Assembly (NCBI GenBank): GCA_963704165.1
Contig: CAVPHD010000011.1
Span: forward strand, 160,001-224,000
Direction of reading: 5' to 3'
Length of the DNA: 64,000 nucleotides
DNA from: an uncultured delta proteobacterium
Lineage (GTDB): Bacteria; Myxococcota_A; UBA9160; SZUA-336
In this document: in pieces, positions 6,810-61,804 of the stretch
How positions within the stretch are numbered: position 1 is the stretch's first letter
Layout of the letters: the number at the start of each line of letters is the position of its first letter
Made by a program: the position numbers and the translations under genes
Notes under the pieces: model-generated
What the model saw: only the letters and a program-made list of their open reading frames with translations
Database searches by the model: none
What the model was told of the DNA's origin: nothing

Positions 6810-6816
6810 CTGCGGT

Positions 6817-7260: not shown

Positions 7261-7339
7261 TTCCTTCCCTCTTCGTCCGCTCGCAGCCTATACTACCGCG
7301 CGCGCTACAGCGCCCCCCGCCGAAGAGCAGAGAGATCCG

Positions 7340-8958: not shown

Positions 8959-8965
8959 GGCGGAG

Positions 8966-10024: not shown

Positions 10025-10034
10025 GGACGAGAAG

Positions 10035-10793: not shown

Positions 10794-10810
10794 TCAGAGA
10801 GAGGTTCACG

Positions 10811-11965
<1,155 letters not shown>

Positions 11966-11985
11966 GCTGGCCGCGGGGCGATCGC

Positions 11986-12894: not shown

Positions 12895-12903
12895 CCGACG
12901 CGC

Positions 12904-42057: not shown

Positions 42058-44082
42058 TCAGTCCGCCAGCGCTTCGGCCACCAGCTCCGCGATGTCCGCG
42101 GCCCGGATCGTTCCGGCGGGGTCGCGCGCACGCAGGCCATCCTCGAACATCTGCAGGCAGAACGGGCACGAGACGGCGGCGGTCGAGGCTCCGCTGGCCT
42201 TCACGTCCTCGATTCGCGTGTAGTTGATGCGCGTCTCCGGCGCGTCGTCCATCCACGCGTATCCGCCCCCGGCCCCGCAGCAGCGCGAGCGCGACCGGCC
42301 CGGCTCGATCTCCCGCAGGGCTCCGGGCCGGGACACGCCGGCGACGACGTCGCGCGGCGGTTCGTACACATCATTGTGGCGGCCGAGGTAGCACGGGTCG
42401 TGGTACGTGACCGACTCGAGCTCCCTGCGGAGCCGGAGCCGGCCCTGCTTCATCAGCTCGTCGATCAGGACGCTGTGGTGCACGACCTCGTAGCGGCCGT
42501 CGAAGTCGGGGTACTCGTTGCGCAGGGTGTTGAAGCAGTGGGGACACGTCGTGATGATCTTGCGCACGCCGTAGCGTTCGAAGGTCTCGATGTTGGCGCG
42601 GGCGCAGGTCTGGAAGCTCAGCTCGCCGCCGACCCGCCGCGCGGGATCCCCGCTGCACGATTCCTCCGCTCCGAGCACCGCGAAGTCGACCCCGCCCGCC
42701 TTCAACACGCGCGCCGTCGCGCGGGTGACGGCGATGTTGCGATCGATCATGGCGCCGGTGCAGCCCACCCAGAACAGGTACTCCGCGCGGTCGCCGCGTC
42801 CGAAGACCTTCAGGTCGAGATCGGCGAACCAGTGCTCCCGGTCCCGTCCGGATCCCGCCCACGGGTGCATGCGTTCGTCCATGCCCCGCAGCATCTGCTG
42901 GACCGGATCGGGCATCTTCGCTTCGCTCATGACCAGGTAGCGGCGCAGGTCGACGAGCTTCGGAACGTGCTCGATGAACACCGGGCACTCCGTCTGACAC
43001 GCGCCGCAGGTCCGGCAACCCCAGACCTCGACCTCGAGGACCGCCGGTGGCTCCGCGCCCGAGGCGCCATCCCCGAGAAGCGGAATCCCGTCGCCCGACC
43101 CGTCTCCGATCCGCTCGAGATGATTCTTGAGGTCGCGGATCAGCTTGCGCGGACTCAGCGGCACGCCGCTCGCGTGCGCCGGGCAGACCGATTCGCAGCG
43201 GCCGCAGTTGGTGCAGGAGTCGAGGTCGAGCAGATCCTTCCAGCTGAAGCCCTCGATGCGTCCGACGCCGAGCGAGACCTCGCTCTCCGGATCCGCATCG
43301 AGCGCGGCCTCGATGTCGAAGTGCTCGAGCTTTCCCGACGGTGCGAGATTGCGCGTGAAGACGTTGGCGAGTCCGAAGGCGATGTGGTCGAGCTTTCCGT
43401 AGGCGACCCAGCCGATGAAGCCGAACGCGGTCAGCGCGTGAAACCACCACATCCAGCGATGCAGCACGAGCAGGGTCGCGTCACCGAGCGGCTGCAGCGC
43501 CAGGGCGATCGCATGCCCGCCCGGCGACCAGAGCGCGAGCTCCGGCTGCTCGCGCAGCTCGCTGGCCGCGATTCGCAGCCCCTCGACGGCGAAGCCCTGC
43601 ACGAAGACGAGCGCGAGCAAGGCCAGCGCGATCCAGTCGTCGAGCACGGTGTGCAGGTGCGCGGGTCGGCTGAAGGCGCGCCGCCACGCGGCCATCGCGA
43701 TTCCAACGAGCCCCGCGATTCCGAACAGGTCGGCGAAGAGCGAGTAGCCGAGGTAGAACGAGCCGCGCAGGAAGTGCACGCCGCTCCAGTCCTGAATCGA
43801 GATCAGCGACGTCGCGACGAGCTCTCCGCAGAACCCGTAGAAGATCAGCATGTGCGCCGTGCCCGCGACCGGATCGCGGAGCTGTCGGCGGCCGCTCAGC
43901 ACCTGCACGACCAATCCACGCAGGCGCTCGATCGGCCGGTCGTGGCGGTGCAGCGGCCGGCCGATCCGCCACAACCGCTGGCGACGGACGAGCCCGCGCA
44001 CGAAGAGCGCGAGCGCCAGAAGCGCGAACGGATAGATCAGCGCCTCGCCGACGACGTTCCAGTAGATCTCACGCGTGGGCAA
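42058..44082 (-). CDS. Membrane Fe-S oxidoreductase, FadF/EtfD/EMO type
   Basis: Transmembrane N-terminus with His residues, CTNCGRCESVCP, CRTCGACQTECP, CPHC, YHDPC, CCG, CPFC. Confidence 0.85.
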   Translation of the reverse strand: MPTREIYWNVVGEALIYPFALLALALFVRGLVRRQRLWRIGRPLHRHDRPIERLRGLVVQVLSGRRQLRDPVAGTAHMLIFYGFCGELVATSLISIQDWSGVHFLRGSFYLGYSLFADLFGIAGLVGIAMAAWRRAFSRPAHLHTVLDDWIALALLALVFVQGFAVEGLRIAASELREQPELALWSPGGHAIALALQPLGDATLLVLHRWMWWFHALTAFGFIGWVAYGKLDHIAFGLANVFTRNLAPSGKLEHFDIEAALDADPESEVSLGVGRIEGFSWKDLLDLDSCTNCGRCESVCPAHASGVPLSPRKLIRDLKNHLERIGDGSGDGIPLLGDGASGAEPPAVLEVEVWGCRTCGACQTECPVFIEHVPKLVDLRRYLVMSEAKMPDPVQQMLRGMDERMHPWAGSGRDREHWFADLDLKVFGRGDRAEYLFWVGCTGAMIDRNIAVTRATARVLKAGGVDFAVLGAEESCSGDPARRVGGELSFQTCARANIETFERYGVRKIITTCPHCFNTLRNEYPDFDGRYEVVHHSVLIDELMKQGRLRLRRELESVTYHDPCYLGRHNDVYEPPRDVVAGVSRPGALREIEPGRSRSRCCGAGGGYAWMDDAPETRINYTRIEDVKASGASTAAVSCPFCLQMFEDGLRARDPAGTIRAADIAELVAEALAD

Positions 44083-44211: not shown

Positions 44212-44799
44212 ATGGCGATCACCCTGAAGGAGTCCTTCGAGGTCGGCGCCGCGATCGACGACGTCTGGCGCTTCATGCTCGATCCGCGCTCGGTCGCCGG
44301 CTGTCTCCCGGGCGCGACCCTCGAGGAGACCGGCGACGAGCGCACGTTCGACGGGACCGTGAAGATCCGCGTCGGGGCGATCACGGCGAGCTACCGCGGA
44401 CAGGTGCGGCTGACGCGCGTCGATCCGCAGACGCACGAGGTCGAGATGCTCGCGGAGGGACGCGAGACCGGCGGCGGCACCGCGCGCGGCACCATCTCGA
44501 GTCGGCTTCGCGTCCGACCGGAGGGCGGTACGGAAGTCCTGACCGAAGCGAACGTCGATCTCTCGGGCCGCATCGTGCAGGTCGGACGCGGAATGATCGA
44601 AGGCGTCGCGCGACAGCTCTTCGTCGAATTCTCGTCGCGCGTCCGCGAGCGCCTCGAGTCGAACCTTGCCGACGCACCCCCGTCGGAAGTCGCCGCCCCG
44701 CGCGACGATTCGGTTCGGATCCTCCCGCTGATCCTGCGCGCGATCTGGGAGCGGATCGTCCGCCTGTTTCGGGGCGGTCCGCGGAGCGCAAAGAAATGA
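44212..44799 (+). CDS. CoxG-like SRPBCC protein
   Basis: VAGCLPGA, VKIRVGAI, LSGRIVQVGRGMI. Confidence 0.85.
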   Translation: MAITLKESFEVGAAIDDVWRFMLDPRSVAGCLPGATLEETGDERTFDGTVKIRVGAITASYRGQVRLTRVDPQTHEVEMLAEGRETGGGTARGTISSRLRVRPEGGTEVLTEANVDLSGRIVQVGRGMIEGVARQLFVEFSSRVRERLESNLADAPPSEVAAPRDDSVRILPLILRAIWERIVRLFRGGPRSAKK

Positions 44800-46007
44800 A
44801 CGCCGCGCTCGGAGGTCTGGTCGTGATCGACCTGACGACCGAGTTCTGGTCGTCGCTCGGCGCCGCGATGCTCGGCGACTTCGGCGCCGACGTGATCCGC
44901 ATCGAGAGCGGACGCGAGCCGCTGGCCCCGCCACCCGATCCCGACGAACGAGCCTCGTGGAGCTATCGCCTCGAACTCGCCAACCGAAACAAGCGCAGCG
45001 TCGCGCTCGACCTCGCGCGCCCCGAGGGCCGCACGCTTCTGCGCGAGCTCATCGCGAAGGCGGACGTCTTCGTCTGCGATTGGCCGCGCGTGGACGTCGA
45101 CGAAGGCGGCTGGGACTACGAGAACCTCGCGCGGACGAAGCCCGGCCTGATCTACGTTCGCGCGACCGGCTTCGGACCGGAGGGTCCCGACCGCGACCTT
45201 CCCGCGCTCGACGAGCTCGCCGCCGCGCGCACCGGAATGATGCCGATCCTGCCGCAGCCCGGTCAGCCTCCCGTCCATTCGGGAAGCGGGCAGATGTACA
45301 CGACGGTGATGCTCGCGTTCGGCGTTCTGACGGCGCTGCACCACCGCGAGGAATCCGGCGAGGGTCAGCTCGTGGACGTCTCGCTCTACGCCGGAAACAT
45401 GTACGGCGCCGCACTCGACATCCAGGCGTTCCTGGCCATGGGCGCGGCCGCGGGCGAGCGCTTGCTGCATCCGGTTTCGCGCCACGACTCCGGCAATCCG
45501 ATGAGCGGAAGCAGCATGCTCTATCCGACGCGCGACGGGCGCTGGCTCACGCTGACCATGCCCGACACCGATCGCTGGTGGCCGGGACTCGCCGCCGCGG
45601 TCGGCCTCGATCCGAAGGATCCGCGCTTCGACAGTCACGAGAAGCGCTGCGAGCAGAACCGTCTCGAACTGATCCACGTGCTCGAGCAGGCGTTCCTGCA
45701 GCACGACGGCGATCACTGGCGCGCGGCCTTCGCCGAGCACCAGCTATCGGCCGACGTGATCGAGGACTACGCGTTCCCCGCCGACGATCCCCAGGCCGAG
45801 CGCAATCGCTACATCCTGAACCTCTGCGACCCGAGCCTCGGCGCCGTTCAGACGCTGGGGTTTCCGATCTTCATGAGCGAGACGCCGGCGCGCCTTGCCC
45901 GGAGCGCGCCCTGCGCCGGACAACACGGCGCCGAGATCCTCCACGACCTGCTCGGCTACACCGAAGAGCGTATCGTCGAGCTGGCGTCCAGCGGAATTCT
46001 CGGCTGA
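44796..46007 (+). CDS. Family III CoA-transferase subunit (catalytic Asp apparently absent)
   Basis: NRNKRS; GSGQMYTT at the Asp position. Confidence 0.85.
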   Translation: MNAALGGLVVIDLTTEFWSSLGAAMLGDFGADVIRIESGREPLAPPPDPDERASWSYRLELANRNKRSVALDLARPEGRTLLRELIAKADVFVCDWPRVDVDEGGWDYENLARTKPGLIYVRATGFGPEGPDRDLPALDELAAARTGMMPILPQPGQPPVHSGSGQMYTTVMLAFGVLTALHHREESGEGQLVDVSLYAGNMYGAALDIQAFLAMGAAAGERLLHPVSRHDSGNPMSGSSMLYPTRDGRWLTLTMPDTDRWWPGLAAAVGLDPKDPRFDSHEKRCEQNRLELIHVLEQAFLQHDGDHWRAAFAEHQLSADVIEDYAFPADDPQAERNRYILNLCDPSLGAVQTLGFPIFMSETPARLARSAPCAGQHGAEILHDLLGYTEERIVELASSGILG

Positions 46008-46028
46008 GAGGACAAGGACGGGACCCCG

Positions 46029-47240
46029 ATGGCCACAGCGCTCGACGGAATTCGCGTCATCGACCTCACGGTCTGGTTCCAGGGGCCGGTCGCCGCGCAG
46101 CACCTCGCGGACTTCGGCGCGGAAGTGATCAAGGTCGAGCGCCCGCAGGGCGGCGATCAGGGGCGCGGGGTCCGCAGCATCAAGGCCGTGCCCGTCGGCG
46201 ACTGGAACCAGTACTTCCTCGTGATCAACCGCAACAAGAAGAGCCTCGCGCTCGATCTGAAGAAGCCCGCGGGACGCGAGATCCTGTACCGCCTGGTCGA
46301 GGAGTCCGACGTCTTCCTGACCAATCTGGGCGCGGAGAACCTCGCGAGCTGGGATTTGTCGTACGAGAAGCTCCACTCGATCAACCCGCGCCTCGTCTAC
46401 GCGACGAATAGCGGCTACGGACCGTTCGGCGGCATCGACAAGCCCTCCTTCGACATGACGGTGCAGGCGTTGACCGGTCTGATGGCCCGACTCGGCGAGC
46501 CGGGCGAGCCGCCGATCTACCTCGGCATGGGATCGGGCGACTCGATCGGCGGACTGATGGCGGCGCTCGGGATCCTGCTCGCGCTTCACCATCGCCGACG
46601 CACGGGGCGGGGACAGCGCCTGGACGCCTCTTTGTACGGCGCTCAGCTCTTCCTCGCCGCACCGAGCCTGCAGGCGTATCTGGCGACGCGAAGCGCTCGC
46701 CATTCACGACAGCGCTCGCGAATGGACGCGACCCATCCGCTCTGGAATCGCTACCCGACGCGCGACGGCTGGATCTTCCTGTGCATGCGGGAGAGCGACG
46801 AGAACTGGCGACGTGTCTGCGAGGGGCTCGAGGATCCGGAGCTCGAACGCGAGCCGCGCTTCGAGAACTCGGAGCTTCGAAGCCGGAACGCACGCGCGTT
46901 GGTCGAGCGCCTCGACGAATCGCTTCGCCGACGCACGTCGGCCCAGTGGATGGAGCGCTTCCGCCGGCTCGACATCGTCGCGAGCCCGATCGGGAACCTG
47001 GCCGACGTCACGTCGGACCCGCAAGCGTGGGCCAACGACTATTTCATGGAGAGTTACTGCGAAGAGGTGAAGCGGGACGTGAAGATCCGCGGCCTGCCAG
47101 TGGGGCTCGGACGAACGCCCGGAACGGTGCGCGCGCTGGGACCGGAGCTCGGTCAGGACACCGAGCTGATCCTGACCGAAACACTCGGCTACACCTGGGA
47201 CCAGGTCGACGAGTTCAAGGCGAAGGGAGCGATCCCGTGA
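46029..47240 (+). CDS. Family III CoA-transferase
   Basis: NRNKKS, SGDSIGG. Confidence 0.9.
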   Translation: MATALDGIRVIDLTVWFQGPVAAQHLADFGAEVIKVERPQGGDQGRGVRSIKAVPVGDWNQYFLVINRNKKSLALDLKKPAGREILYRLVEESDVFLTNLGAENLASWDLSYEKLHSINPRLVYATNSGYGPFGGIDKPSFDMTVQALTGLMARLGEPGEPPIYLGMGSGDSIGGLMAALGILLALHHRRRTGRGQRLDASLYGAQLFLAAPSLQAYLATRSARHSRQRSRMDATHPLWNRYPTRDGWIFLCMRESDENWRRVCEGLEDPELEREPRFENSELRSRNARALVERLDESLRRRTSAQWMERFRRLDIVASPIGNLADVTSDPQAWANDYFMESYCEEVKRDVKIRGLPVGLGRTPGTVRALGPELGQDTELILTETLGYTWDQVDEFKAKGAIP

Positions 47241-48478
47241 GTCCCAGCGCCCGCGGACCTCTCGATGGAATTCGCGTGCTGGATCTCGCGACGATGCTCG
47301 CCGGTCCGTACGGCGCGACCCTGCTCGGCGATCTCGGCGCCGACGTGATCAAGGTCGAGTCGCACTTCGGAGACGACAGCCGGCATCTCGGTCCCGAGCG
47401 CGACGGGGAGCGCACCGCGTTCCTCAGCCTGAACCGGAACAAGCGCGGCGTCGTGCTCGACCTGCGTCGCGAGAGCGCGCGGCGCGCGTTCGAACGTCTG
47501 CTGCGGACCACCGACATCCTGATCACCAACGTCCGCGAGCCCGCGCTCTCGCGCCTGGGACTCGACTACGCACAGGTGTGTCAGCACCGGCCGGACGTCA
47601 TCTGGATCGGCGTCACCGCATTCGGAGCGGACGGCCCCTATGCCGGACGGCCGGGAATCGACTTCCTCGCGCAGGGCTTCGCCGGGCTGCTCGCGCTGAA
47701 TGGCGATCCCGACGGCGACCCCGTGCGCGTGACCGTTCCGCTGGTCGACGTGATGACGTCGCTCCTGGTCTCGTCGTCCGCGCTCGCCGCCCTGCACTCG
47801 CGCTCGGCGACGGGCCGAGGTCAGCGCATCGACCTGTCGCTCCTCGACGCGCTGGTGCACGCGCAGACGAGCGCGATCGGCGCGTATCTGGTGGCCGGCG
47901 AAGTCGCGCCGCGAACCGGGAATCGCAGCCAGTACTTCGCGCCCTCCGGCATCTACACCTGCGCCGACGGCGAGCGCGTGGTGATCACCTGCCCCTCGGA
48001 GAAGTTCTTCCGAAAGCTCTGCGATTCGCTCGACGTCGACTGGGTCGCCGACCCGCGCTTCGCGAACATCGAGCGCAGGCTCGAGAACGTCGAGGCTCTC
48101 GACGCGCTGCTGCAGGAGCGCTGCGGGAGCCTGCCGCGCGCCGCGCTGATCGAGCGGCTGGTCGCCGGCGACGTGCTGACGGCTCCGGTGAACGAGCTTC
48201 CCGACGTCGTGCAGGATCCGCAGATCCGCCACAACGGCATGATCGCCCGCGTCGAGCACGCGCGCCTCGGGCCGATCGAGATCGTGGGCACGCCGCTGCA
48301 CCTGCAGGGAACGCCCGCCTCGGTCCGCCGCGCGCCTCCGCTGCACGGCCAGCACACCGTGGAGCTGCTCCTCGAGCTCGGCTATTCGGTGACGGAGATC
48401 GAGGATCTCGTCCGCGACGGCGCGGCGGCGACCGATCTCGACACCGCAAAGGCCGCGCGAGGCGAACGGAACGAGTAG
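47237..48478 (+). CDS. Family III CoA-transferase
   Basis: NRNKR, LVDVMTS. Confidence 0.9.
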   Translation: MSPSARGPLDGIRVLDLATMLAGPYGATLLGDLGADVIKVESHFGDDSRHLGPERDGERTAFLSLNRNKRGVVLDLRRESARRAFERLLRTTDILITNVREPALSRLGLDYAQVCQHRPDVIWIGVTAFGADGPYAGRPGIDFLAQGFAGLLALNGDPDGDPVRVTVPLVDVMTSLLVSSSALAALHSRSATGRGQRIDLSLLDALVHAQTSAIGAYLVAGEVAPRTGNRSQYFAPSGIYTCADGERVVITCPSEKFFRKLCDSLDVDWVADPRFANIERRLENVEALDALLQERCGSLPRAALIERLVAGDVLTAPVNELPDVVQDPQIRHNGMIARVEHARLGPIEIVGTPLHLQGTPASVRRAPPLHGQHTVELLLELGYSVTEIEDLVRDGAAATDLDTAKAARGERNE

Positions 48479-48492
48479 CGCCGGGGCGCGCG

Positions 48493-49380
48493 TCAGTCCT
48501 CGGAGCTGCCCTCGTCGTATTCCTTCGCGAGCTTGCGTCGCAGCTCGCTCTCGCGCTCGCGCAGGCTCCAGAAGCGCGGCGGGCGACGCTGCGAGAAGGC
48601 CGCCCCCCCTTCCCTTCCCTCGGGCTGGTCGAACCAATCGGGATAGAGCTGGCTCGAGATCACGCCCATCTCGGCGTACCCGTCCATCTGCTGGTCGAAC
48701 GCCGCCTTCAGGACTTCGAGGCAGCCGGGGCTGGCCAGAAGCAGATCCTCGCACCACGCATCGACGGCCTCGTCGAGCCGCGCGCGCGGAACGACACGGT
48801 TCACGAGTCCCATCTGCAGGGCCTCGTGCGCGGTGTAGCGCCGGCACAGCATCCACATCTCCCGCGCGCGCTTGGCCCCGACGACGTTCACCAGATAGGG
48901 AACGAAGAAGCCGTCCGCGGGGCTCGAGACGCGCGGACCCGCCTGACCGAAGATCGCGTCCTCGGCGGCGATCGTGAAGTCGCAGCAGTACGCCATGTGA
49001 TTGTGCCCGCCGAGGCAATAGCCCTGCACGACGGCGATCACGGGCTTTCGCGACAGCCGGATCAGACGGTTGTGCGGATAGCGGTTGTAGAACGCCTCGC
49101 GCAGCCCCCACTTCTCCCACTCGACGTCGCCGCCCGTGCCGAAGTGATCACCGCTGCCCGCGACGATCAGCACGCCGATCGCGGCATCGTGGTTCGCGTC
49201 GTAGAACGCGCGGAACATCTCGTCGACGGTTCGGAGCGTCATCACGTTGAGCTTGTCGGGCTTGTCGATGGTGATGCGCGCCATGCCACCCTGAAGCGTG
49301 GCGTGAATCCGCTTCTCGTACCGGATCTCCTCGAAATCGAGACCCGCGCCTTCGACCCGCCGCCACTCGCCAAAGCTCAT
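48493..49380 (-). CDS. MenB/BadI-like crotonase (possible ring-opening hydrolase)
   Basis: EEIRYEK, GGD, FGQAGPRV, AREMWMLCRRYTA, EGREG. Confidence 0.75.
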   Translation of the reverse strand: MSFGEWRRVEGAGLDFEEIRYEKRIHATLQGGMARITIDKPDKLNVMTLRTVDEMFRAFYDANHDAAIGVLIVAGSGDHFGTGGDVEWEKWGLREAFYNRYPHNRLIRLSRKPVIAVVQGYCLGGHNHMAYCCDFTIAAEDAIFGQAGPRVSSPADGFFVPYLVNVVGAKRAREMWMLCRRYTAHEALQMGLVNRVVPRARLDEAVDAWCEDLLLASPGCLEVLKAAFDQQMDGYAEMGVISSQLYPDWFDQPEGREGGAAFSQRRPPRFWSLRERESELRRKLAKEYDEGSSED

Positions 49381-49409
49381 GCTCGTGCGCCTCCGTTCGT
49401 CGCTGATCT

Positions 49410-49838
49410 CTAGAGTGAACCGACGACCCGGCCGGCGTCGCGAATCAGGTCGGTGAGCGCCGTCCCGCCCAGCCTGCGAAACGCGTCCGGAAGCTCGCCC
49501 TCCAGCCCCAAGAACTCGGTCCAGACGGGGCACGCGTAGATCACGACGCCCGCGCGTTCGGCGAGCGCGAACAGTCCCTTCGCATCGAGCTGACGTCCGA
49601 CACCGCGCCCGAGCAGCGGCAGGCCCGCGCGCGAAGCGCGCTCGGCGATGCCGAGACGCACGGCCTGACCCGAGAGCTCGCGGGGCCAGTCGAACGTCCC
49701 CCGCACGGCCGCGGCGAGCGCTTCCTGCGTCAGGAGCACGCCGACCTCCTGCCCCGCCTCCCGCGCGCGGATCGCCGTGAGCAGGTTTCCGGCGAGCGAG
49801 CTCGCGAGCGCATCGCGGATGATCAGCAGCAGATCCAT
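49410..49838 (-). CDS. DsrE-like protein
   Basis: AGQEVGVLLTQEA, GVVIYACP. Confidence 0.55.
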   Translation of the reverse strand: MDLLLIIRDALASSLAGNLLTAIRAREAGQEVGVLLTQEALAAAVRGTFDWPRELSGQAVRLGIAERASRAGLPLLGRGVGRQLDAKGLFALAERAGVVIYACPVWTEFLGLEGELPDAFRRLGGTALTDLIRDAGRVVGSL

Positions 49839-49997
49839 CGTCCCTCTCGATTCGCGCAGACCGACTCCGCACGAGAAGACGCGAACCGATGCTCTTCGTC
49901 AAGCGACCCCGCCGCGCGGTGCCATGCGGTAGAATCGGCACGTCGGGATGCTCCCGCACTCTGACGCAACGTTCCGGAAGTCCCGACGAGGCTGCGC

Positions 49998-50894
49998 ATG
50001 AAACCGGCCCCCTTCGACTACTTCGCCGCATCGAGCGCGGACGAAGCCGTCGGCCTGCTCGCGAAGCACGGCGACGACGCGATGGTCCTCGCCGGGGGAC
50101 AGAGCCTGCTTCCGCTTCTCAACCTCCGACTCGCGCGTCCCGCGGTCCTGGTCGATGTGTCGAAGGTCGGCGAGCTCGACTACATCCGGGAGTCGGATCG
50201 CGGACTCGAGATCGGCGCGGTGACCTCCAAGCGAAACGTCGAGCACTCGGCGCTCGTGCGCGAGCGCCACCCGCTCCTGCACGCCACCACCTGCTTGATC
50301 GCCCACCCTCCGATTCGCAGCCGCGGAACCGTCGGAGGATCCCTCGTGCAGGCGGATCCCGCCGCCGAGTATCCCGCGCTCGCGGTGGCGCTCGACGCGG
50401 AGCTTCACGTCGCGAGCTCCGAGGGCGAACGGACGATCGCCGCGGACGATTTCTTTCACGGCTTCCTGGCGACGGACCTCGCACCCGGCGAGCTGCTCAA
50501 GTCCGTGCTCTGGCCGAAGCTCGAGCCGGGCAGCGGCTGGTCGTGCCTGGAGTTCGCACGACGCCCGGGCGACTTCGCGCTGGCCGGAGTCGTGGTGACG
50601 GTGTCGCTCGACGACGGCGGCCGCTTCGCGGAGACACGCCTGGTTCCGTTCGGCGTCGGTGCTCGGCCCGTGCGCCTGCGAGATGCGGAGCAGACGCTGC
50701 TCGGCGAGGCGCCGGGCGACGCCGTCTACGAACGAGCGGCGGAACGGGCGGTCGCGTCGCTCGAGCCGCCGCATTCCGACGTCCACGCGTCCTCGGAGTA
50801 CCGCCTGCACCTGATGCGCGTGCTCCTCGGTCGCGCGCTCACCGAGGCGAGCGCGCGTGCGCATCGTCAACGGGAGAACCCGCCGCGTGCCTGA
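49998..50894 (+). CDS. Mo-hydroxylase FAD (medium) subunit, CoxM-like
   Basis: MKPAPFDY, AGGQSL, RSRGTVGGS. Confidence 0.92.
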   Translation: MKPAPFDYFAASSADEAVGLLAKHGDDAMVLAGGQSLLPLLNLRLARPAVLVDVSKVGELDYIRESDRGLEIGAVTSKRNVEHSALVRERHPLLHATTCLIAHPPIRSRGTVGGSLVQADPAAEYPALAVALDAELHVASSEGERTIAADDFFHGFLATDLAPGELLKSVLWPKLEPGSGWSCLEFARRPGDFALAGVVVTVSLDDGGRFAETRLVPFGVGARPVRLRDAEQTLLGEAPGDAVYERAAERAVASLEPPHSDVHASSEYRLHLMRVLLGRALTEASARAHRQRENPPRA

Positions 50895-51375
50895 TCGACA
50901 CCCCATCCGCCTGAACGTGAACGGCCGCGCGCACGAAGGCAGCGCCGAAGCGCGAACCTCGCTCGCGGACTTCCTGCGGCACGAACTCGGACTGACGGGC
51001 ACGCACGTCGGCTGCGAGCACGGCGTCTGCGGCGCGTGCACCGTCCTGCTCGACGGCATCCCGGTCCGCTCCTGTCTCACGCTCGCCGTGCAGGCCAGCG
51101 GGTCGAACGTCGCGACGGTCGAAGGACTCGCACCCGACGGAGAGCTTCACCCGATCCAGCGCGCGTTCATGCAGGAGCGGGGCCTGCAGTGCGGCTTCTG
51201 CACGCCCGGCTTCCTGATCGGCGTGCAAGACCTGCTGCAGCGCAACTCCGATCCGAGCGACGACGAGATCAAGGAAGCGCTCGGCGGTCAGATCTGTCGC
51301 TGTACGGGGTACCAGTCGATCCTCGCGTCGGTGCGGAGAGCCGCGGCCATGCTGCGCCAGGCGAACGGGGCCTGA
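50887..51375 (+). CDS. Mo-hydroxylase 2x[2Fe-2S] (small) subunit, CoxS-like
   Basis: GCEHGVCGACT, QCGFCTPG, CRC. Confidence 0.92.
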   Translation: MPDRHPIRLNVNGRAHEGSAEARTSLADFLRHELGLTGTHVGCEHGVCGACTVLLDGIPVRSCLTLAVQASGSNVATVEGLAPDGELHPIQRAFMQERGLQCGFCTPGFLIGVQDLLQRNSDPSDDEIKEALGGQICRCTGYQSILASVRRAAAMLRQANGA

Positions 51376-51378
51376 GCT

Positions 51379-53799
51379 TTGGCTGGCGAATTCCCCAAGG
51401 ACCCGTCCGGTCTGCCGACCCGCAAGCTCCGCTTCGTCGGCCATCCGGTCGAGCGCGTCGAGGATCCGAAGCTGCTGACGGGGCGCACGCCGTTCATCGA
51501 CGATCTCTCGCTGCCCGGAATGCTGCACTGCGCGATCCTGCGCAGCCCCTACGCGCACGCGCGCATCGCATCGGTCGATCTCGGCGAAGCCGAAAAACTT
51601 CCCGGCGTGGCCGCGGCCGTCTGCGGCGCGGATGCGCTGCGCTGGACGGAGCGCGCGCTGACCGTGCCCGCCGGATGGGGCACGCACTGCCTCGCCACCG
51701 ATCGCGCGCGCTTTGCCGGTGAGCCCGTCGCCGCGGTGGCCGCCACGAGCCGGGCGCTGGCCGAGGACGCGATCGAGCGGATCCGTGTCGACTACGAGCC
51801 GCTTCCCGCCGTCGTGGACGCGCGCGAGGCGGCGAAGCCGGAAAGCACGCCGCTCTTCGAGGAACACGGACACAACGTCATGTTCCAGCGGGTCTTCCGC
51901 TGGGGAGACGTCGATCGCGTCTTCCAGGAGGCGGATCGCGTCGTCGAGGAATCGTTTCGTTGGCACCGCCTGGGCGCGAACCCGATGGAGACGTTCGGCG
52001 TCATCAGCCAGTGGGATCCGGTCGACGGAAGCCTGACCTGTCACGGCAGCTTCCAGTCCCAGTCCCAGATGGCGCTCGGCCGCGCGGCGTCGCTGCGCCT
52101 CCCGTCGCACAAGGTTCGCCTGATCAGCCAACCGCACGGCGGCAGCTTCGGCGGCAAGGGGGGATTCCGCGGCACCGACATCAGCGCGCTCCTCTCGCGC
52201 AAGGCCGGCGGTCGGCCGGTGAAGTGGATCGAGGATCGCATCGAGTACATGTCCGGCGGCGCGAGCCAGTCCTGGGACCGACACTATACGGCGTCACTCG
52301 CGGTACGAAACGACGGCACCGTGACGGGATTCCGCGTGAAGTTGCTCGACGACCTCGGCGCGACCGCCGAGGGGTTCGGGGCCGTCAGCGCCGCCAAACC
52401 CCTGAGCTCGTTCACGGGCTGCTACGCGATTCCGGTGGCCGAGTACGACTTGACGATCGTCGCGACGAACAAGCTGCCCGGCAGTCCGTATCGCGGCATG
52501 GGACCGCCGCCGCACAACCTGGTGCTCGAGCAGCTGATGGACATCGCCGCGCGCGAGCTCGCGCTCGACCCCGCGGAGCTGCGCCGTCGCAACTTCATCG
52601 CGCCCGATCAATTTCCCTACACGATCGCGAGCGGAAACGAGTACGACAGCGGCAACTACGAGGCCGCCCTGAACGAGGTGCTCGAGCTTTCGGACTACCC
52701 CGCGTTGCGCGCGCGACAGGCGTCGGCACGCGCCGAGGGGCGGCTCGTCGGCATCGGAATCGTCAGCACGATCGAGCCCGGCGTCTTCGACTGGAACGCG
52801 TACTCGATCCTCGGGATGCCGAGCACGGGCGTACCCGAGGGCTGCACGGTCGCGATCGACATCCTCGGCAAGGTGCTCGTGCGCGTCGGCTTCGCGCTCG
52901 AAGGTCAGGGGCAGTACACGGTCGCGACCCAGCTCCTCGCGGACTACTTCGGCGTCGAGCTCGACGACGTCAAGGTGATTCCGCAGGACTCCCTTTCGGC
53001 GCCGCCCCACTTCGGTCCCGGCGGCAGCCGGCTCGGCGTGGCGCTGACGGGCGCGGTGCTCGGCGCCGCCAAACGACTCGAGCAGAAGCTCGCGATCGTC
53101 GCGGCGGCGTTGCTGCAGACCGAGCCCGACGCGCTCGAGCTGATGGACGGATCGTTCCGGATCAAGGGCGCACCGGAGGCCGCGATTCCGCTCGCGCAGG
53201 TGGCCGGGACGATGCTCGCGCGAAGCGACCTGCTGCCTCCCGGCGTCGAGCCGAGTCCCGAGGCCACCTACGTATGGACCGCGCCCGGACGCACGCAAGC
53301 CGACGAGCTCGGGCGCGCCAAGAGCTATCTGACCGCGGCGAATGCGTGTCACGTCGTCGGGGTCGAGATCGATCGCGAGACCGGCCGCGTCGAGATCCTC
53401 GACTACTGCATCGCAGACGACTGCGGAACACGACTGAATCCGGCGATCGTCGAGGGCATGATCCAAGGCGGTGTTGCCCAGGGCATCGGCGCGGCGCTGC
53501 TCGAGGAGTACCACTACGACGGGTCGGGCCAACCGCTGACCTCGACGCTGATGGACTATCTGCTGCCGACGATTCACGATGTGCCCGCGATGCGCATGCG
53601 CGCGATCGTGACGCCGTCCCCGTTCACGCCGCTCGGCGCGAAGGGCGTCGGCGAGGGAGCGATGCACACGACGCCCGCCGCGATTCTGTGCGCAATCAAC
53701 GACGCGCTCGCACCGCTCGGGGTGCGCGCGACCGAGATCCCGGCTTCCCCGGAGCGCCTCTGGCGACTCATGCACGGAGCCGGGCCGCGAACTCGCTAG
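51379..53799 (+). CDS. Xanthine dehydrogenase-family molybdopterin (large) subunit
   Basis: GGSFGGK, PYRGMG, GQG, QGIG, KGVGE. Confidence 0.92.
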   Translation: MAGEFPKDPSGLPTRKLRFVGHPVERVEDPKLLTGRTPFIDDLSLPGMLHCAILRSPYAHARIASVDLGEAEKLPGVAAAVCGADALRWTERALTVPAGWGTHCLATDRARFAGEPVAAVAATSRALAEDAIERIRVDYEPLPAVVDAREAAKPESTPLFEEHGHNVMFQRVFRWGDVDRVFQEADRVVEESFRWHRLGANPMETFGVISQWDPVDGSLTCHGSFQSQSQMALGRAASLRLPSHKVRLISQPHGGSFGGKGGFRGTDISALLSRKAGGRPVKWIEDRIEYMSGGASQSWDRHYTASLAVRNDGTVTGFRVKLLDDLGATAEGFGAVSAAKPLSSFTGCYAIPVAEYDLTIVATNKLPGSPYRGMGPPPHNLVLEQLMDIAARELALDPAELRRRNFIAPDQFPYTIASGNEYDSGNYEAALNEVLELSDYPALRARQASARAEGRLVGIGIVSTIEPGVFDWNAYSILGMPSTGVPEGCTVAIDILGKVLVRVGFALEGQGQYTVATQLLADYFGVELDDVKVIPQDSLSAPPHFGPGGSRLGVALTGAVLGAAKRLEQKLAIVAAALLQTEPDALELMDGSFRIKGAPEAAIPLAQVAGTMLARSDLLPPGVEPSPEATYVWTAPGRTQADELGRAKSYLTAANACHVVGVEIDRETGRVEILDYCIADDCGTRLNPAIVEGMIQGGVAQGIGAALLEEYHYDGSGQPLTSTLMDYLLPTIHDVPAMRMRAIVTPSPFTPLGAKGVGEGAMHTTPAAILCAINDALAPLGVRATEIPASPERLWRLMHGAGPRTR

Positions 53800-53817
53800 C
53801 AGAGAAGGAGCCACCCC

Positions 53818-54795
53818 ATGAAAGAAGCCGATCACTTCGTCGCGCTCAGCGAATGCCACATGATGAATCCGCAGTCGATGGAGGAGATGGGGTACTACCC
53901 CGGCTTCACGCGCTGGTGGCAGAGCATCGACGGTGTCATCCGCGCCTGGGCCGGGCGCGATCTGGCGGGCGGTGGCCACATGCCCGCGCCGATCGCGTCG
54001 GAGCTGGTCAAGTACATGGACGAAGCGCGCGTCGACGTGGCGTTCGCGCTTCGCGAGTCGATGATGGACATCAACGGCAACGTGATGCCGATGTCGACCA
54101 ACGCGTTCATCCTGCAACAGATCGAGCCCTACCGGGATCGGCTCTACCTGGAGTGCAACGTCGGACCGGTCATCCGGCGCGGCGTCGAGCACGCGATCTG
54201 GGAGCTCGAGTACCTCGTCAAGGAGCGAAACGCCCGGCTCTGCAAGTTGTACGTCCCCGAAGACGAAGGGCCGCTCGACGACCGCCGCCTCTGGCCCTTC
54301 TACGAGAAGTGCTGCGAGCTCGACATCGCGGTGACGATCCACACCGGCATGTCCTACGTGGTTCCGCAGCCGAGCAAGCACACCCATCCGGGTCTGCTCG
54401 ACGACGTGCTGCTCGCCTTCCCCGATCTCAAGGTGATCGCCTACCACATGGGCTGGCCCCATTCGGAGGAGCTGATCGGCCTGGCCGGCAAACACCGAAA
54501 TCTGTACCTCAGCCTGTCGGGGATCATCGGCTGGTTCCAGCGCGCGCCGTATCGCGGGTATCACATGATCGGCGAAGCGATCCAGTGGGCGGGACCCGAC
54601 CGCATCGTGATGGGCCTCGACCTGCCCTTCGACGACATCGGGCGCGTCGTCGACTGGGTGAGAACCCTCCAGATCCCCGAAGAGCTGCAGCAGAAGTGGG
54701 GATACGCGCCGATCACCGAGGACGACCGCGCGGGAATTCTCGGACGCACGCTCGCGAAGCTCGCCAAGATCGAGCCGACCAAGCGGGTCAAATGA
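53818..54795 (+). CDS. Amidohydrolase_2 family protein
   Basis: PFYEKC, IHTG, HMGWP, GLDLP. Confidence 0.8.
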   Translation: MKEADHFVALSECHMMNPQSMEEMGYYPGFTRWWQSIDGVIRAWAGRDLAGGGHMPAPIASELVKYMDEARVDVAFALRESMMDINGNVMPMSTNAFILQQIEPYRDRLYLECNVGPVIRRGVEHAIWELEYLVKERNARLCKLYVPEDEGPLDDRRLWPFYEKCCELDIAVTIHTGMSYVVPQPSKHTHPGLLDDVLLAFPDLKVIAYHMGWPHSEELIGLAGKHRNLYLSLSGIIGWFQRAPYRGYHMIGEAIQWAGPDRIVMGLDLPFDDIGRVVDWVRTLQIPEELQQKWGYAPITEDDRAGILGRTLAKLAKIEPTKRVK

Positions 54796-55583
54796 GTCGC
54801 ACGGTGAGCGCGGAGCTGCCCGAGACGATCTCACTCGAGCGACGGGGACGAATCGCCGTCATCACGATGAACCGTCCCGAGGCGATGAACGCCTACACCG
54901 TCGAGATGCTCGCGGGTCTCGAAGAGGCGTTCCGGATCTTCGATCGCGACGCCGACCTCTGGGTCGCCGTCCTGACCGGGGCCGGGTCGAAGAGCTTCTG
55001 TGCCGGAATGGACTTGAAGGACGCCGCGCCGCTCTTGACCTCGGGCGATTCGCTCGGGTACGACGACCCGACCAAGCGCCAGTTCTCGGACGTCTTCAAG
55101 CCGATCATCGCGGCGGTGAACGGGCTCTGCATCGCGGGCGGGCTCGAGATGCTGCAGGGCACCGACCTGCGGATCGCGGCCGAGCACGCGAAGTTCGGAC
55201 TCGGAGAGGTGCGCTGGGGCCTGGTTCCCGCCGGAGGCTCGCACATCCGACTGCCGCGGCAGATCCCCTGGGCCGTCGCGATGGAGCTCTTGCTCACCGG
55301 CGAGTCCCTCGACGCCCGGCGGGCGCTCGAGATCGGGCTCGTGAATCGCGTCGTTCCCGCGGATCAGGTCATGCCCGAGGCGCTCGCGCTCGCGGAGAAG
55401 ATCTGCCGCAACGGTCCCCTCGCCGTACGCACCGCCAAGGAGATCGCGGTGCGCGCGCTCGGCCAGGAGTCGGGATTCGTGCTCGAGAAGACGCTCGCCG
55501 CGCGCGTCTTCGCATCGGAGGACGCGCGCGAGGGACCCCGCGCCTTCGCCGAGAAACGCCCTCCCCGCTTCACCGGTCGCTAG
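54792..55583 (+). CDS. Enoyl-CoA hydratase family protein
   Basis: NRPEAMNA, FCAGMDL, GGLE, GEVRWG. Confidence 0.88.
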   Translation: MSRTVSAELPETISLERRGRIAVITMNRPEAMNAYTVEMLAGLEEAFRIFDRDADLWVAVLTGAGSKSFCAGMDLKDAAPLLTSGDSLGYDDPTKRQFSDVFKPIIAAVNGLCIAGGLEMLQGTDLRIAAEHAKFGLGEVRWGLVPAGGSHIRLPRQIPWAVAMELLLTGESLDARRALEIGLVNRVVPADQVMPEALALAEKICRNGPLAVRTAKEIAVRALGQESGFVLEKTLAARVFASEDAREGPRAFAEKRPPRFTGR

Positions 55584-55601: not shown

Positions 55602-56824
55602 TCAGTAGATCACCTGATTGTCGATCTGCTCCCGGTAGCTCTCGTCGGAGAGGCCGAGCAGCTCGCGGAACACGTGATCGTTGTCGTGGCCGATCGCCGG
55701 GCCCGGCTCGATGCGCGCCTCCGTGCGGCTGGTCTTCACGTACGCACCGTAGATCGTCTCGGAGAAACCGAGCGGGTGGCGTACCTCGATGAAGGTGCCT
55801 CGCGCACGGTAGTGCGGATCGGAGAGCAGGTCGGCGACGTTGAGAACGGGAGCGGCGGCGACGCCGTGGCGCTGCAGCCGGGCGGCCAGCTCGCGGTCGT
55901 CGTGCCGGTCGTCCAGGCGGCCAGCCGCTCGTGCAGGTCGTCGAGATTCCGGACGCGCGCGGCCGTGGTCGCGAACTCCGGCGTGCCCGCCCAGGCCGGA
56001 CCGCCCATCGCGTCGACGAGGCCCCGCCACTCCGCATCGTCGAGGACCGCGATGCTGATCCAGCGATCCTCGCCCGCGCACGGGAATACACCGTGCGGCG
56101 CCGCCGCGCCGAGCGGATGGCGGTTCCCCATCGGCCCGGCGACGCGCCCGTTCATCGCGTAGTCCATGAAGGCGGGACCGACCATCTGCATGACCGCCTC
56201 TTGCTGCGAGTAGTCGATGTGCTGGCCGTCGCCGGTGCGGCGCCGGTGGTGAAGCGCGGTGAGGATCGCGAACGCGCCGAGGATTCCGTTGTACGGATCG
56301 GAGAACGCGTTCTCGACCGGAATCGGCGGACCGCCGAGATAGCCGGTCAGGCTGTCGAGCCCGGTCGTGCTCGTGAGGCTGAGACCGTAGGTGCGGATGT
56401 CCCTCAGCGGTCCGTCGAGACCCGCCGCCGGCATCGAGAACAGGACGATGTCCGGCCGCACCGCGCGCAGTCGCTCGTAGCCGAGTCCGAGCTCCTCCAT
56501 GACGCCCGGGCCGAAGTTCTCGATCACGACGTCGCACTTCGCGACCAGCTCGAGCGCGAGTCGGATCGCTTCGGGCTTCTTCAGGTTGAGCGTGACGCTG
56601 CCGTTGCCCGCCCAGCAGGCGTGATTCGACAGGCTGCGGTTCGGGTCGCGGACGCCGTCGGCGAACGGCGGCAGCGTGCGGGTCATGTCGATGCGCGCGC
56701 GCGACTCGATCTTGTAGACCTCGGCGCCGAGGAAGGCGAGCGTCTGGCCGACGACCGGACCCGCCCAGACCCAGCCGAAGTTCGCGACGCGGATGCCGTC
56801 GAGCGGGAGCGCCTGCGCCCGCCA

Positions 56825-56825
<1 letters not shown>
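55602..56825 (-). CDS. Family III CoA-transferase, frameshifted
   Basis: FGWVWAGP, IENFGPG, FSDPYNG. Confidence 0.8.
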
Positions 56826-58043
<1,218 letters not shown>

Positions 58044-58098: not shown

Positions 58099-58157
58099 GG
58101 GCCGCCCGCGCCGAACAAGCGGCGCTCCCAACGACGCGCTCGCCAGGGGGATGTGAC

Positions 58158-59268
58158 GTGGCCCAGAGATCCCTTGCGGACGAAGCTCTGCGACATGCTC
58201 GGGATCGAGTACCCGATCATCGCGTTCACCCACTGCAAGGACGTCGCCGTCGCGGTGATCAACGCCGGCGGCTTCGCCGTGCTCGGCGAGGCGATGCACA
58301 CGCCGGACGAGATCGCGGCCGACATCAAGTGGATCCGCGAGCGCGTCGGCGGCAAGCCGTTCGGCATCGACCTGGTGCTGCCGGCCTCGGTCGCCGCTCG
58401 AGGGCGGCCTCGAGGAGCTGCGAGAGCAAGATCCCCGAGAGCCACCGCGCCTTCGCGCGAGAGATCAAGAAGCGCCACGACGTGCCCGACGCCGAAGGGG
58501 CCGGTGGCGCTGCACCGGTGGGGCGGACTCAACCAGGCAGATGGCGCGCGCGCAGCTCGACGTGCTGCTCGACGAGCGCGTGCCGGTGTTCGCCTCGGGC
58601 CTCGGCAACCCGGCCTTCATCCTCGAGGCCGCGCACGCGCGCGGCATGAAGGTCTTCGGGCTGATCGGCAAGACGCGCCAGGCCGAGCGCGAGATCGAGG
58701 CCGGCGTCGACGCGATCATCGCCCAGGGCTACGACGCCGCCGGCCACACCGGCACGATCGGCACGTTCTCGATCGTGCCCGAGGTCGCGGCGATCGCCGG
58801 CGACACGCCGGTGATCGCCGGCGGCGGCGTCACGACCGGCCGTCACCTCGCGGCGGCGCTCTGCCTCGGGCGCCTCGGGCGTCTGGACCGGCACGCTCTG
58901 GCTCGCGTCGCGCGAGTCCGACGCGGACATGATCATCAAGGAGAAGCTGCTCGCGGCCACGGCCGAGGACACCATGTACTCGCGAAGCGTCTCGGGCATG
59001 ACGATGCGCGTGCTGAAGTGCCCGTGGACCGAGGAGTGGGCGAAGCCCGAGGCGCCGCGCGCCGCTCTGCCGCGCCGTACCAGATGCTGCTGAGCGCCGA
59101 CTACATCCAGGGCGCCAACGACCACCGCCGCGCAGGACCTGATGTACCGAGGCCGCGGGCCAGGGCGTCGGCTTCGTCACCACGATGAAGCCGGCGCGTC
59201 AGATCGTCTTCGACATGGTCGAGGAGGCGCTCGCCGCGTTCGAGGAGCGCCTCGGAGACGACGCGTGA
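58158..59268 (+). CDS. Nitronate monooxygenase-family flavoprotein, many frameshifts
   Basis: LRTKLCDMLGIEYPI, QGYDAAGHTG, WTGTLWL. Confidence 0.75.
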
Positions 59269-59550
59269 GCGATTCGGACGCCGACGCCGAGCGGACGAAG
59301 CGCACGCGCTCCGGCACGGCTTCGACCGGAGCCGCGCGGGACGCGCGCCGAGTGCGACGGCGGAGGCGGCGTGCCGGGGACGCACTTCGCCGGGCGCGAG
59401 GAGTTCGCGGGCACGCTCACCGGCGATTACGTCGATCACGGCGATCCCCCCTGGCGCTGGTATCTGCTGGCGGATCTCCGAGCGCAAGCCCGAGGGCTAC
59501 CCGCACGACGCCGTCTGGTGTGAGTCCGGGAGCCTGTTCCTGAGCGATGA
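59265..59550 (+). CDS. Small hypothetical protein, frameshifted; boundaries approximate
   Basis: Coding-like GC3-rich frame GTHFAGREEF...PPWRWYLL, then YPHDAVWCE. Confidence 0.45.
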
Positions 59551-59553
59551 GCG

Positions 59554-60380
59554 ATGCGTCGTCTGCGCGCAAGGAGGTGCTCGATCCCGACGCGGTGAAC
59601 AACTACGCGCTCGCCGGGCGGCTCGACGATCGGCGACGACGGCAAGACGCTGACGCAGACCGCGATCCCGCGTCTGATCAACGGCTTACGACGAGCAGGC
59701 GATCGAGGCCGCGCTGCGCATGCGCGACGCGGGGACGCCGTGCGCGATCCACGTCGTCTCGGTCGGTCGCGACGCCGTCGAACCTGCTGCAGCACGCCGC
59801 CGCGCTCGGCGCCGACGAGGTCGCCGCGATCGCGCTCGATACGGCCGACGCCCGACTACCACGTGGTCGCGCGCGATCCTGGCCGCCTACGTGCGCGACG
59901 CAGCGGCGGCGCCGATCTGGTGCTCTGCGGCCGCCAGGCCTCGGACGACGACCAGGGCGTCGTGCCGGCGCTGATCGGCGAGGCGCTCGGCCTGCCCGGT
60001 CGTGACGATCGCGCGCCCGGTCGAGCTCGATCGCGGCTCCGAGCCGCGCGGTGGCTCGCGTCATGCGCGTGACGCCCGACGGCGACGAGATCGTCGAGGT
60101 CGCGCTGCCCGGCGGTCGTCACGATCAGCAACGAGCTCGGCACGCCGCGCTACCCGACGGCCGGCACGCAAGCTCGCCGCGCGCCGCGTGAAGCCGCGCG
60201 TGCGTGACGCTCGGCGGAGCTGTCGCTCTCGGAAGCCGACCTCGCTCCGGCCGTGACGCTGGTCCGGCAGTTCGTGCCCGAGGTGCAGGGACACTGCGAG
60301 TTCATCGAGGGCGGCAGCGCCGCGCCGAGCTCGCCGACCGGCTGATCGGGCGCCTGCGCGCCGACGGCGTGCTCCCGTGA
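59554..60380 (+). CDS. etfB: Electron transfer flavoprotein beta subunit, many frameshifts
   Basis: KEVLDPD, YDEQAIEAALR, CGRQASDDDQG, TISNE..PRYP. Confidence 0.75.
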
Positions 60381-61800: not shown

Positions 61801-61804
61801 GGAG

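Follow-up and report, generated by a model that had tools for sequence, protein, structure and literature searches.

The window analyzed here is a stretch of 64,000 nucleotides on contig C11 of the genome of an uncultured delta proteobacterium, which was assembled to 3.87 Mb in 12 contigs with 68% GC and a completeness of 84%. Between positions 44212 and 55583, it carries a block of genes encoding orthologues of AtcABC, the molybdenum-containing 1-testosterone hydratase/dehydrogenase (1-TDH), and of SRAH, which hydrolyzes steroid ring A, together with CoA-transferases and crotonases. All 11 open reading frames of the block were recovered and were uninterrupted; genes outside the block were often frameshifted in this 12-contig assembly. 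Related loci were collected by a genome scan, in which 492 matching stretches were found and the best 80 (63–75% identity) were analyzed; counts per 80 loci refer to flanks of up to 10 kb, and many loci are incomplete at their ends. The genes of the block are as follows.

44212..44799, + strand: CoxG-like accessory protein of the SRPBCC fold (Pfam COXG, 1e-16; orthologue cluster in 8/80 loci)
44796..46007, + strand: family III CoA-transferase 1, likely an inactive partner of CoA-transferase 2 (GQM for GD, thus lacking the catalytic Asp, in all 13 aligned sequences; 16/80 loci)
46029..47240, + strand: family III CoA-transferase 2, catalytic Asp kept (Pfam 3.7e-109; conserved GD; 21/80 loci)
47237..48478, + strand: family III CoA-transferase 3, catalytic Asp kept (Pfam 1.2e-114; 22/80 loci; in the sequence, its GTG start overlaps the preceding stop)
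48493..49380, - strand: BadI/MenB-like crotonase, candidate C-C hydrolase, likely for the acetate-releasing step (best models MenB, 220 of 380 bits, and BadI, 207 of 468 bits, both below cut-off; 43/80 loci)
49410..49838, - strand: DsrE-like protein with one conserved Cys in an ACP motif (Atlas lead at 0.87; Cys kept in 11 aligned sequences; 10/80 loci)
49998..50894, + strand: AtcABC medium (FAD) subunit (Pfam; 47–49% identity to medium subunits adjoining primer-defined atcA genes)
50887..51375, + strand: AtcABC small subunit with two [2Fe-2S] clusters, likely GTG start at 50887 from the sequence (Pfam; 59–70% to small subunits adjoining primer-defined atcA)
51379..53799, + strand: AtcA orthologue, molybdopterin large subunit of 1-TDH (identity, clade, reverse-primer site)
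53818..54795, + strand: SRAH orthologue, steroid ring-A beta-diketone hydrolase of the amidohydrolase 2 family (67% over 319 amino acids to P0411)
54792..55583, + strand: EchA19-like enoyl-CoA hydratase, candidate SDA-CoA hydratase (NCBIfam EchA19, 308 of 400 bits; both catalytic glutamates in the PDB alignment; 54/80 loci)

The Pfam matches in the block were CoxG, three CoA_transf_3, two ECH_1, FAD_binding_5 with CO_deh_flav_C, Fer2/Fer2_2, MoCoBD_1/2, and Amidohydro_2, in agreement with the genes and families named in the first-pass annotation except for the DsrE-like protein. This label was the weakest call, with no Pfam match and with DsrE/DrsE_2 as the nearest Atlas clusters at 0.85–0.87, which is a lead only. 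The three annotated CoA-transferases were all present as CoA_transf_3 genes, one of them without the catalytic Asp; CoA-transferases 1 and 2 presumably resemble BbsE/BbsF heterodimers. In Thauera-type loci, a 62–63% orthologue of CoA-transferase 3 adjoins atcA (L085, L089), and a 68% orthologue of the EchA19-like hydratase adjoins the SRAH gene (L085). The conserved unit extended beyond 44212..55583 to near 63 kb, with its carboxylase part outside the window.

The clustered large, medium, and small subunit genes belong to the xanthine oxidase family, and the enzyme was identified as an AtcABC orthologue by the identity and clade of its large subunit, which bears out the first-pass annotation of a molybdenum hydroxylase of the steroid 2,3-seco type. 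The large subunit was 61% (482/790) and 63% identical to AtcA of Steroidobacter denitrificans (AMN46163.1) and Thauera sp. GDN1 (WP_281048927.1), respectively, both without gaps. These values fall within the range of 59.8–78.2% to the Sterolibacterium protein given for accepted 1-TDH orthologues, and well above the 22–33% of rejected ones, in Jacoby 2025 (PMC11780191, Table S4). A search of 1.84 billion representatives clustered at 50% identity gave one full-length match at 76%, and the next was at 46%. In a quick maximum-likelihood tree (LG+G4, 62 rows, SH-aLRT support, no bootstrap) including AtcA, MhyADH-like proteins, and heterocycle hydroxylases, the large subunit fell inside the AtcA clade; Steroidobacter AtcA branched outside the clade uniting the window protein with Thauera AtcA, and the whole group had an SH-aLRT value of 100.

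Of the two degenerate atcA primers given in PMC5554518, only one had a site in the window. The reverse-primer site was found at 52627–52653 with 2 mismatches, with 0 such sites expected by chance. A metagenome scan with the forward primer yielded 16 loci, 10 of which were unrelated sequence and were dropped; the other 6 also carried the reverse site, encoded proteins 61–63% identical to the window protein, and belonged to clusters that include the named AtcA of S. denitrificans and Thauera sp. GDN1. The window enzyme shares with AtcABC of Steroidobacter and Thauera the three-subunit architecture, the reverse-primer motif, and the linkage to SRAH and HIP genes, and differs in its host, which lies outside the beta- and gammaproteobacteria, and in the unmatched forward-primer site.

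The amidohydrolase encoded at 53818–54795 was identified, again by sequence comparison, as the SRAH orthologue. The ring-hydrolyzing enzyme, which the first-pass annotation took to be unassigned, was assigned in 2025: according to Jacoby 2025 (PMC11780191), it is SRAH, in Sterolibacterium denitrificans (WP_154715975.1) an amidohydrolase-2 protein of 38.6 kDa. In the window, the corresponding gene is the one immediately 3' of atcA. As stand-ins for this protein, we used P0407 and P0411, which belong to a cluster with Sterolibacterium-labelled members, whose ends fit the cloning primers, and whose masses are 38.56 and 38.58 kDa, respectively. The window protein (37.2 kDa) was 67% identical to both over 319 residues and 69% identical to Aromatoleum CIB WP_050415325.1, compared with only 37–40% to the paralogue adjoining Steroidobacter atcA. 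H14, H175, H210, and D268, which are likely metal ligands, were kept in 95% or more of the 120 homologues aligned. The protein shares with Sterolibacterium SRAH the amidohydrolase 2 family, these likely ligands, and the adjacency to atcA, and is 16 residues shorter than the stand-in, chiefly at the C-terminus; in contrast to typical SRAH loci, the aldolase pair usually found 3' of the SRAH gene is missing here. The BadI-like crotonase was rejected as the ring-A hydrolase because SRAH is an amidohydrolase. In Steroidobacter-type clusters (L094:3748-4728, L095:8623-9603), a second amidohydrolase with 37–41% identity to SRAH-type proteins directly follows atcA, and paralogues at 38–41% likewise occur in some other genomes.

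The 2,3-seco pathway is described as apparently restricted to denitrifying beta- and gammaproteobacteria in Jacoby 2025 (PMC11780191). The related loci were mostly titled Myxococcota, Deltaproteobacteria, and Binatia, with some Chloroflexota and Gammaproteobacteria, and the nearest relatives of the window were titled Deltaproteobacteria, Myxococcota, or Binatia; at the level of predicted genes, the published restriction is contradicted. An SRAH orthologue lay within 64 of the 80 related loci. Fifty AtcA-bearing genomes, drawn mostly from the related loci that were long, were searched as whole genomes, and SRAH was found in 50/50 and IpdA in 42/50. We also sampled the class of the window evenly, taking 151 genomes with the source genome among them; the resulting counts are to be read as patterns rather than tests because kin are not independent. 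AtcA gave 41 matches in this sample, three of which were dropped (38–40% identity), leaving 38 (at least 58%). SRAH occurred in 37/151 genomes, all among those 38, and in the sole AtcA-positive genome without it, atcA lay at a contig edge. IpdA was present in 126/151 genomes, including 38/38 AtcA-positive ones, and AtcA was found in 0/25 IpdA-negative genomes, which agrees with the co-occurrence with ipdAB that the first-pass annotation had set as a check. A strong KshA_C match was found in 2/151 genomes, both AtcA-positive. Among same-genus genomes in the sample, 7/8 lacked AtcA, SRAH, and IpdA together, and genome G007 had all three. In 88 of the 151 genomes, IpdA was present, but no AtcA orthologue was found and no KshA_C match fell below E 1e-50; weaker KshA_C-domain proteins were common in related genomes. 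A literature search for the pathway in Binatia, Myxococcota, or metagenome-assembled genomes found nothing relevant, most subscription papers lying outside the search, and the extension of the 2,3-seco range into this Myxococcota-type class is, as far as our searches show, new to print.

The surroundings of the block were consistent with steroid degradation. The NCBIfam and Pfam matches confirmed that the block is inside a steroid island with kstD and HIP genes, as first annotated. Models above cut-off in the island were PRK07938 (EchA20-type), PRK07801 (FadA6-type), PRK07831, PRK07850 (steroid thiolase), and PRK07656 (FadD3), the Ech and FadA6 gene names being those that we take these models to denote. 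An IpdA-type CoA-transferase fold, a KstD split by a frameshift, Ltp/DUF35 genes, and a full side-chain toolkit were also found. The features outside the block are as follows.

4423..13686: KstD (frameshift-split), ipdA, ipdB, ipdC, echA20, fadA6, and two short-chain dehydrogenases/reductases for the HIP C/D rings (NCBIfam, Pfam; ipdB by position only)
14505..15731, + strand: CYP125/CYP142-like P450, likely oxygen-dependent side-chain entry (best PDB matches CYP125, 2e-86, and CYP142, 2e-81)
35179..36776, - strand: Ltp2-like thiolase-fold protein and DUF35/OB-fold partner, the closest paralogue (~38–41%) of the missing ring-A aldolase pair
42058..44082, - strand: membrane Fe-S/CCG-domain oxidoreductase, a possible electron sink for ETF (Pfam CCG, Fer4, Nitrate_red_gam; equivalent position in G007)
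55602..58043, - strand: second family III CoA-transferase pair, frameshifted here, within the conserved unit (Pfam; ~70% orthologues in L085; 29/80 loci)
58156..62990, + strand: FabK/NMO-like flavoprotein, EtfB, EtfA, OB-fold protein, and thiolase retaining its Cys, which is invariant in 11 sequences (all frameshifted; each in 10–12/86 loci)

A frameshifted methanethiol oxidase (MtoX/SBP56-like) gene at 63076–64000 lies at the right edge of the island, and two flavin-dependent halogenase-like genes, a desaturase, and a closer MenB/BadI-like crotonase (347 of 380 bits) follow to the right of the window (C11:224001-239730).

The first-pass annotation had called for a search of the whole genome for kshA and hsaC. 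KshA_C (PF19298) and the HsaC-type model TIGR03213 gave 0 matches in the 84%-complete genome, which is moderate evidence of absence as the control genomes contained no true positive. One HsaA-like flavin monooxygenase was found below cut-off (261 of 450 bits) on contig C4 (C4:231256-234045); it adjoins two glyoxalase-domain genes and probably belongs to a separate aromatic pathway. A flavoprotein on contig C4 matching PRK07121 is a candidate delta-4 enzyme, given the role that we assume for this family. The host encodes an aa3-type oxidase, two further heme-copper-family proteins, XdhC, and a MocA-like protein. None of the 7 molybdopterin-domain matches in the genome was identified as NarG or NapA. 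An ambiguous, frameshifted alpha/beta/gamma operon of the type II DMSO-reductase family on contig C9 (~57.9–62.4 kb) could encode a periplasmic nitrate/perchlorate-type reductase or a hydroxylase; its assignment as steroid C25 dehydrogenase was not supported. The PDB match 4ydd scored slightly above ethylbenzene dehydrogenase. Because the host has the aa3-type oxidase and the CYP125/142-like P450, the route may run with oxygen present, and it is plausible, as predicted from these genes, that an oxygen-dependent side-chain entry is joined to an oxygen-independent ring opening. Oxic operation of the 2,3-seco pathway in Sterolibacterium is described in PMC3691188.

Taken together, these data indicate that the block very probably encodes oxygen-independent (2,3-seco) opening of ring A, with neighbouring genes that process the opened ring. 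The module first annotated as acting on rings A and B is thus upheld for ring A by orthology and the association with HIP genes; its ring-B chemistry is speculative, and the aldolase pair conserved in relatives was not detected. Orthology to purified enzymes indicates that the molybdenum enzyme would add water to C1=C2 of androst-1-ene-3,17-dione, with oxidation of the product to the 1,3-dione, and that C2-C3 would then be hydrolyzed by the amidohydrolase to give DSAO. The family III transferases could then form DSA-CoA, and an acyl-CoA dehydrogenase with ETF could produce the 4-enoyl-CoA. Release of acetate (C1-C2) may be catalyzed by the BadI-like crotonase through vinylogous retro-Claisen chemistry of the EchA20 kind, followed by hydration of the product by the EchA19-like enzyme and release of acetyl-CoA by a paralogous Ltp/DUF35 aldolase. 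Further steps would lead from the product to HIP, to be finished by the FadD3/Ipd/EchA20 genes of the island. Jacoby 2025 (PMC11780191) assigns no enzymes to the later steps, which comprise activation with CoA, dehydrogenation, release of acetate by a hydrolase, hydration, and an aldolase step, and the authors state that their own clusters hold putative genes for them; some of the candidates above may already be in the synteny figure of that paper.

The crotonase was a conserved partner of AtcA. Its orthologue was present in 36/38 AtcA-positive and 2/113 AtcA-negative class genomes and in 4/4 proteobacteria-titled genomes tested; in the related loci, clusters of a Cys-less Ltp-type protein occurred in 60/80 (a few of them distant members) and DUF35/OB proteins in 33/80, short open reading frames being under-called. 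The crotonase shares with BadI, MenB, and EchA20 the crotonase fold, the glycines of the oxyanion hole, and the Ser conserved in the MenB/BadI branch, and its reaction is likely, by analogy, a C-C hydrolysis of an activated thioester. In the alignment to MenB structures, the Asp that serves catalysis in MenB is shifted by one position and two catalytic MenB tyrosines are replaced. The protein forms a family of its own with 69–88% identity, distinct from MenB and BadI, and a closer MenB-like gene exists elsewhere in the genome. EchA20 and BadI provide a precedent in their reverse-Dieckmann hydrolysis of HIEC-CoA and 2-ketocyclohexanecarboxyl-CoA, respectively (PMC5380842). DSA-4-en-CoA is an enoyl thioester with an acetyl group at its gamma carbon; as we read the structures, EchA20 acts on the same arrangement when it cleaves HIEC-CoA. 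Because of this likeness and its near-universal occurrence, the crotonase is the best candidate for acetate release, with about an even chance of being the enzyme.

In most relatives, a Thauera-type locus among them, the SRAH and hydratase genes flank those for a Cys-less aldolase and a DUF35 protein, whose aldolase role is likewise predicted, with 64–80% identity across some 55 loci. The direct SRAH-hydratase junction of the window recurs in G007 and G084, and G007 (97% complete) is collinear with it at 85% over 6.7 kb; a deletion in the assembly was rejected as the cause of the missing pair on account of this shared junction. G007 also carries a three-gene operon of the acetone carboxylase type between coxG and CoA-transferase 1. 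In the source genome, the matching 5.0 kb (76% nucleotide identity to G007) lies inverted and frameshifted at C11:151082-156041, 4–9 kb before the window and about 50 kb from the block, and was either translocated and inverted or misassembled. The encoded enzyme shares with the acetone carboxylase AcxABC (PDB 5m45, 5svb) its three subunits, and its alpha subunit aligned over the full length (best PDB match, E 3.5e-112); it differs in forming a divergent branch, with 34% identity to the next homologue class, that is tied to steroid ring genes. Its orthologue was found in 26/38 AtcA-positive and 2/113 AtcA-negative class genomes (one 34% match dropped); three proteobacterial records with AtcA (G062, G078, G079) gave no match to it. 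Contig C7 of G108 carries carboxylase and BadI-like orthologues in a genome without AtcA or SRAH, as an assembly gap or independent use of the sub-module would explain.

A BaiCD/OYE-like flavoenzyme (at least 78% identity) was found in 10/12 AtcA-positive genomes without the carboxylase and 2/26 with it, a count that leaves out six further genomes with 56–58% paralogues only. The raw Fisher p for this exclusion was 8e-6, and along the tree the two states switch 9 and 7 times; when the tree was taken into account, it was not significant (7 independent pairs, a mean of 4.2 in the same direction and 0 in the opposite one, median p 0.125). The flavoenzyme (L020:1775-3736; L118, L119), which could be a delta-4 reductase, is 78–90% conserved from Myxococcota-type to proteobacterial clusters and was not found here. 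The association of the crotonase and the carboxylase with AtcA is, as far as our searches show, new to print; a literature search that paired acetone carboxylase with steroids, and one for later studies of ring B, brought up nothing relevant, most subscription papers being outside the search.

Several observations weigh against the assignment of the block to androgen ring-A opening. The identities of 61–63% were measured against Steroidobacter and Thauera proteins, whereas the published range is relative to Sterolibacterium AtcA; that of the amidohydrolase was measured against the stand-in P0411 and not WP_154715975.1 itself; and the atcA forward-primer site was not found within 3 mismatches. 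The aldolase/DUF35 pair was not found in the 84%-complete genome (best 38–41%), nor in G007 or G084 (best 47–48%). Eight of the 50 named AtcA genomes, of whatever completeness, had no IpdA match, and 30 of the 50 carried some KshA_C-domain protein, 3 of them below E 1e-60, so that AtcA does not imply an absence of oxygenases. Since IpdA is common in the class (126/151) and kin are non-independent, 38/38 is weaker than it appears. DSA-CoA was made with ATP and CoA in the assay described in PMC11780191, which points to a ligase over a transferase. Finally, the natural substrate could be another 3-keto-1-ene polycycle.

This last reading, that the same chemistry acts on the 3-keto-1-ene ring of a non-androgen polycycle (a side-chain sterol intermediate, a bile-acid derivative, or a di- or triterpenoid) or on a cyclohexenone as in MhyADH, is improbable. 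About 35–40% of the residues differ from the characterized enzymes, the aldolase pair is missing and the carboxylase displaced in this lineage, and the island holds a full side-chain toolkit. However, IpdA accompanied AtcA in every AtcA-positive class genome, and SRAH showed less than 0.1% activity on cyclohexane-1,3-diones in PMC11780191. MhyADH of Alicycliphilus denitrificans, a cyclohexenone hydratase/dehydrogenase with the same reaction type and the same medium-small-large gene order (PMC3044224), was compared through its published motifs and a motif-bearing representative, P0544, in place of its own sequence, as it was not among the listed genes of plasmid pALIDE201; the motifs are absent from the window protein, and P0544 was just 40% identical and outside the AtcA clade. 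That the molybdenum enzyme hydroxylates an N-heterocycle or aromatic compound (quinoline, nicotine, or furoyl-CoA type), with the amidohydrolase acting on the hydroxylated ring, is hardly credible. It had been held a real alternative in the first-pass annotation, and many database labels read 'CO/xanthine dehydrogenase'; the best solved structures were CoxL, quinoline 2-oxidoreductase, and a ketone dehydrogenase. These were distant matches (350–470 bits, gapped), their rank is uninformative because no AtcA structure was among the matches, and the CoxL model TIGR02416 stayed below cut-off (506 of 991 bits). The large subunit adjoining meqE on pAL1 fell outside the AtcA clade, and a plasmid search gave no homologue of the large subunit at 60% or more (best-ranked, 39.5%) and no close relative of the amidohydrolase. 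The tree already largely refutes the heterocycle reading, and the orthology of AtcA and SRAH identifies the block as the known 2,3-seco module.

Within the assignment to ring-A opening, the crotonase may act elsewhere. It is possible, with less than an even chance, that it opens ring B: the carboxylase would attach CO2 to the ketone that remains once ring A has been removed, the transferase pair would activate the resulting beta-keto acid, the crotonase would hydrolyze a product like 2-ketocyclohexanecarboxyl-CoA, the substrate of BadI, and an aldolase would release propionyl-CoA and leave HIP. The carboxylase genes directly precede CoA-transferases 1 and 2 in G007 and in the Gammaproteobacteria-titled G037, where the run continues on one strand with the crotonase, the aldolase, and the DUF35 gene, and the linkage recurs in L035 and L057; the distribution of the carboxylase among AtcA-positive genomes and its resemblance to the acetone carboxylase alpha subunit fit this scheme and suggest a ring-B carboxylation route, and the ring-B route is called unclear in reviews (PMC7264893). 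On the other hand, 11/12 AtcA-positive genomes without the carboxylase keep the crotonase, acetate release proceeded in extracts without added ATP and needs a hydrolase according to PMC11780191, and the carboxylase is displaced and frameshifted in the source genome and was not found in the three proteobacterial records. Decay of the block to a relic that no longer supports complete steroid degradation is improbable, if less so than a heterocycle substrate. The aldolase pair was not found, frameshifts affect the carboxylase, kstD, the second CoA-transferase pair, etfAB, and the thiolase, and just 1/11 same-genus genomes has an AtcA orthologue; nevertheless, 11/11 block genes are intact, frameshifts also hit unrelated genes (a split triose-phosphate isomerase), as expected from long-read errors, and G007 has the same SRAH-hydratase junction with an intact carboxylase alpha gene.

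The two key enzymes of oxygen-independent ring-A opening were already known, and the block itself is not a new system. The AtcA and SRAH pair is present in about a quarter of the sampled genomes of this uncultured class, and AtcA orthologues also occur in records titled Binatia and Chloroflexota; this cluster would escape surveys that rely on kshA/hsaC or use the published forward primer for atcA. The co-occurrence data narrow the candidates for the five later ring-A enzymes and for ring-B breakdown to a few genes. Tentatively, the carboxylase, the transferase pair, the BadI-like hydrolase, and the aldolase could supply the oxygen-free route that is missing between the ring-A product and HIP, through ATP-driven carboxylation of ring B and subsequent hydrolysis, with the flavoenzyme marking an alternative version in genomes without the carboxylase, in a pathway that would be widespread in uncultured Myxococcota-type bacteria, Binatia, and Dehalococcoidia. 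If this is true, these groups would be major overlooked steroid degraders.

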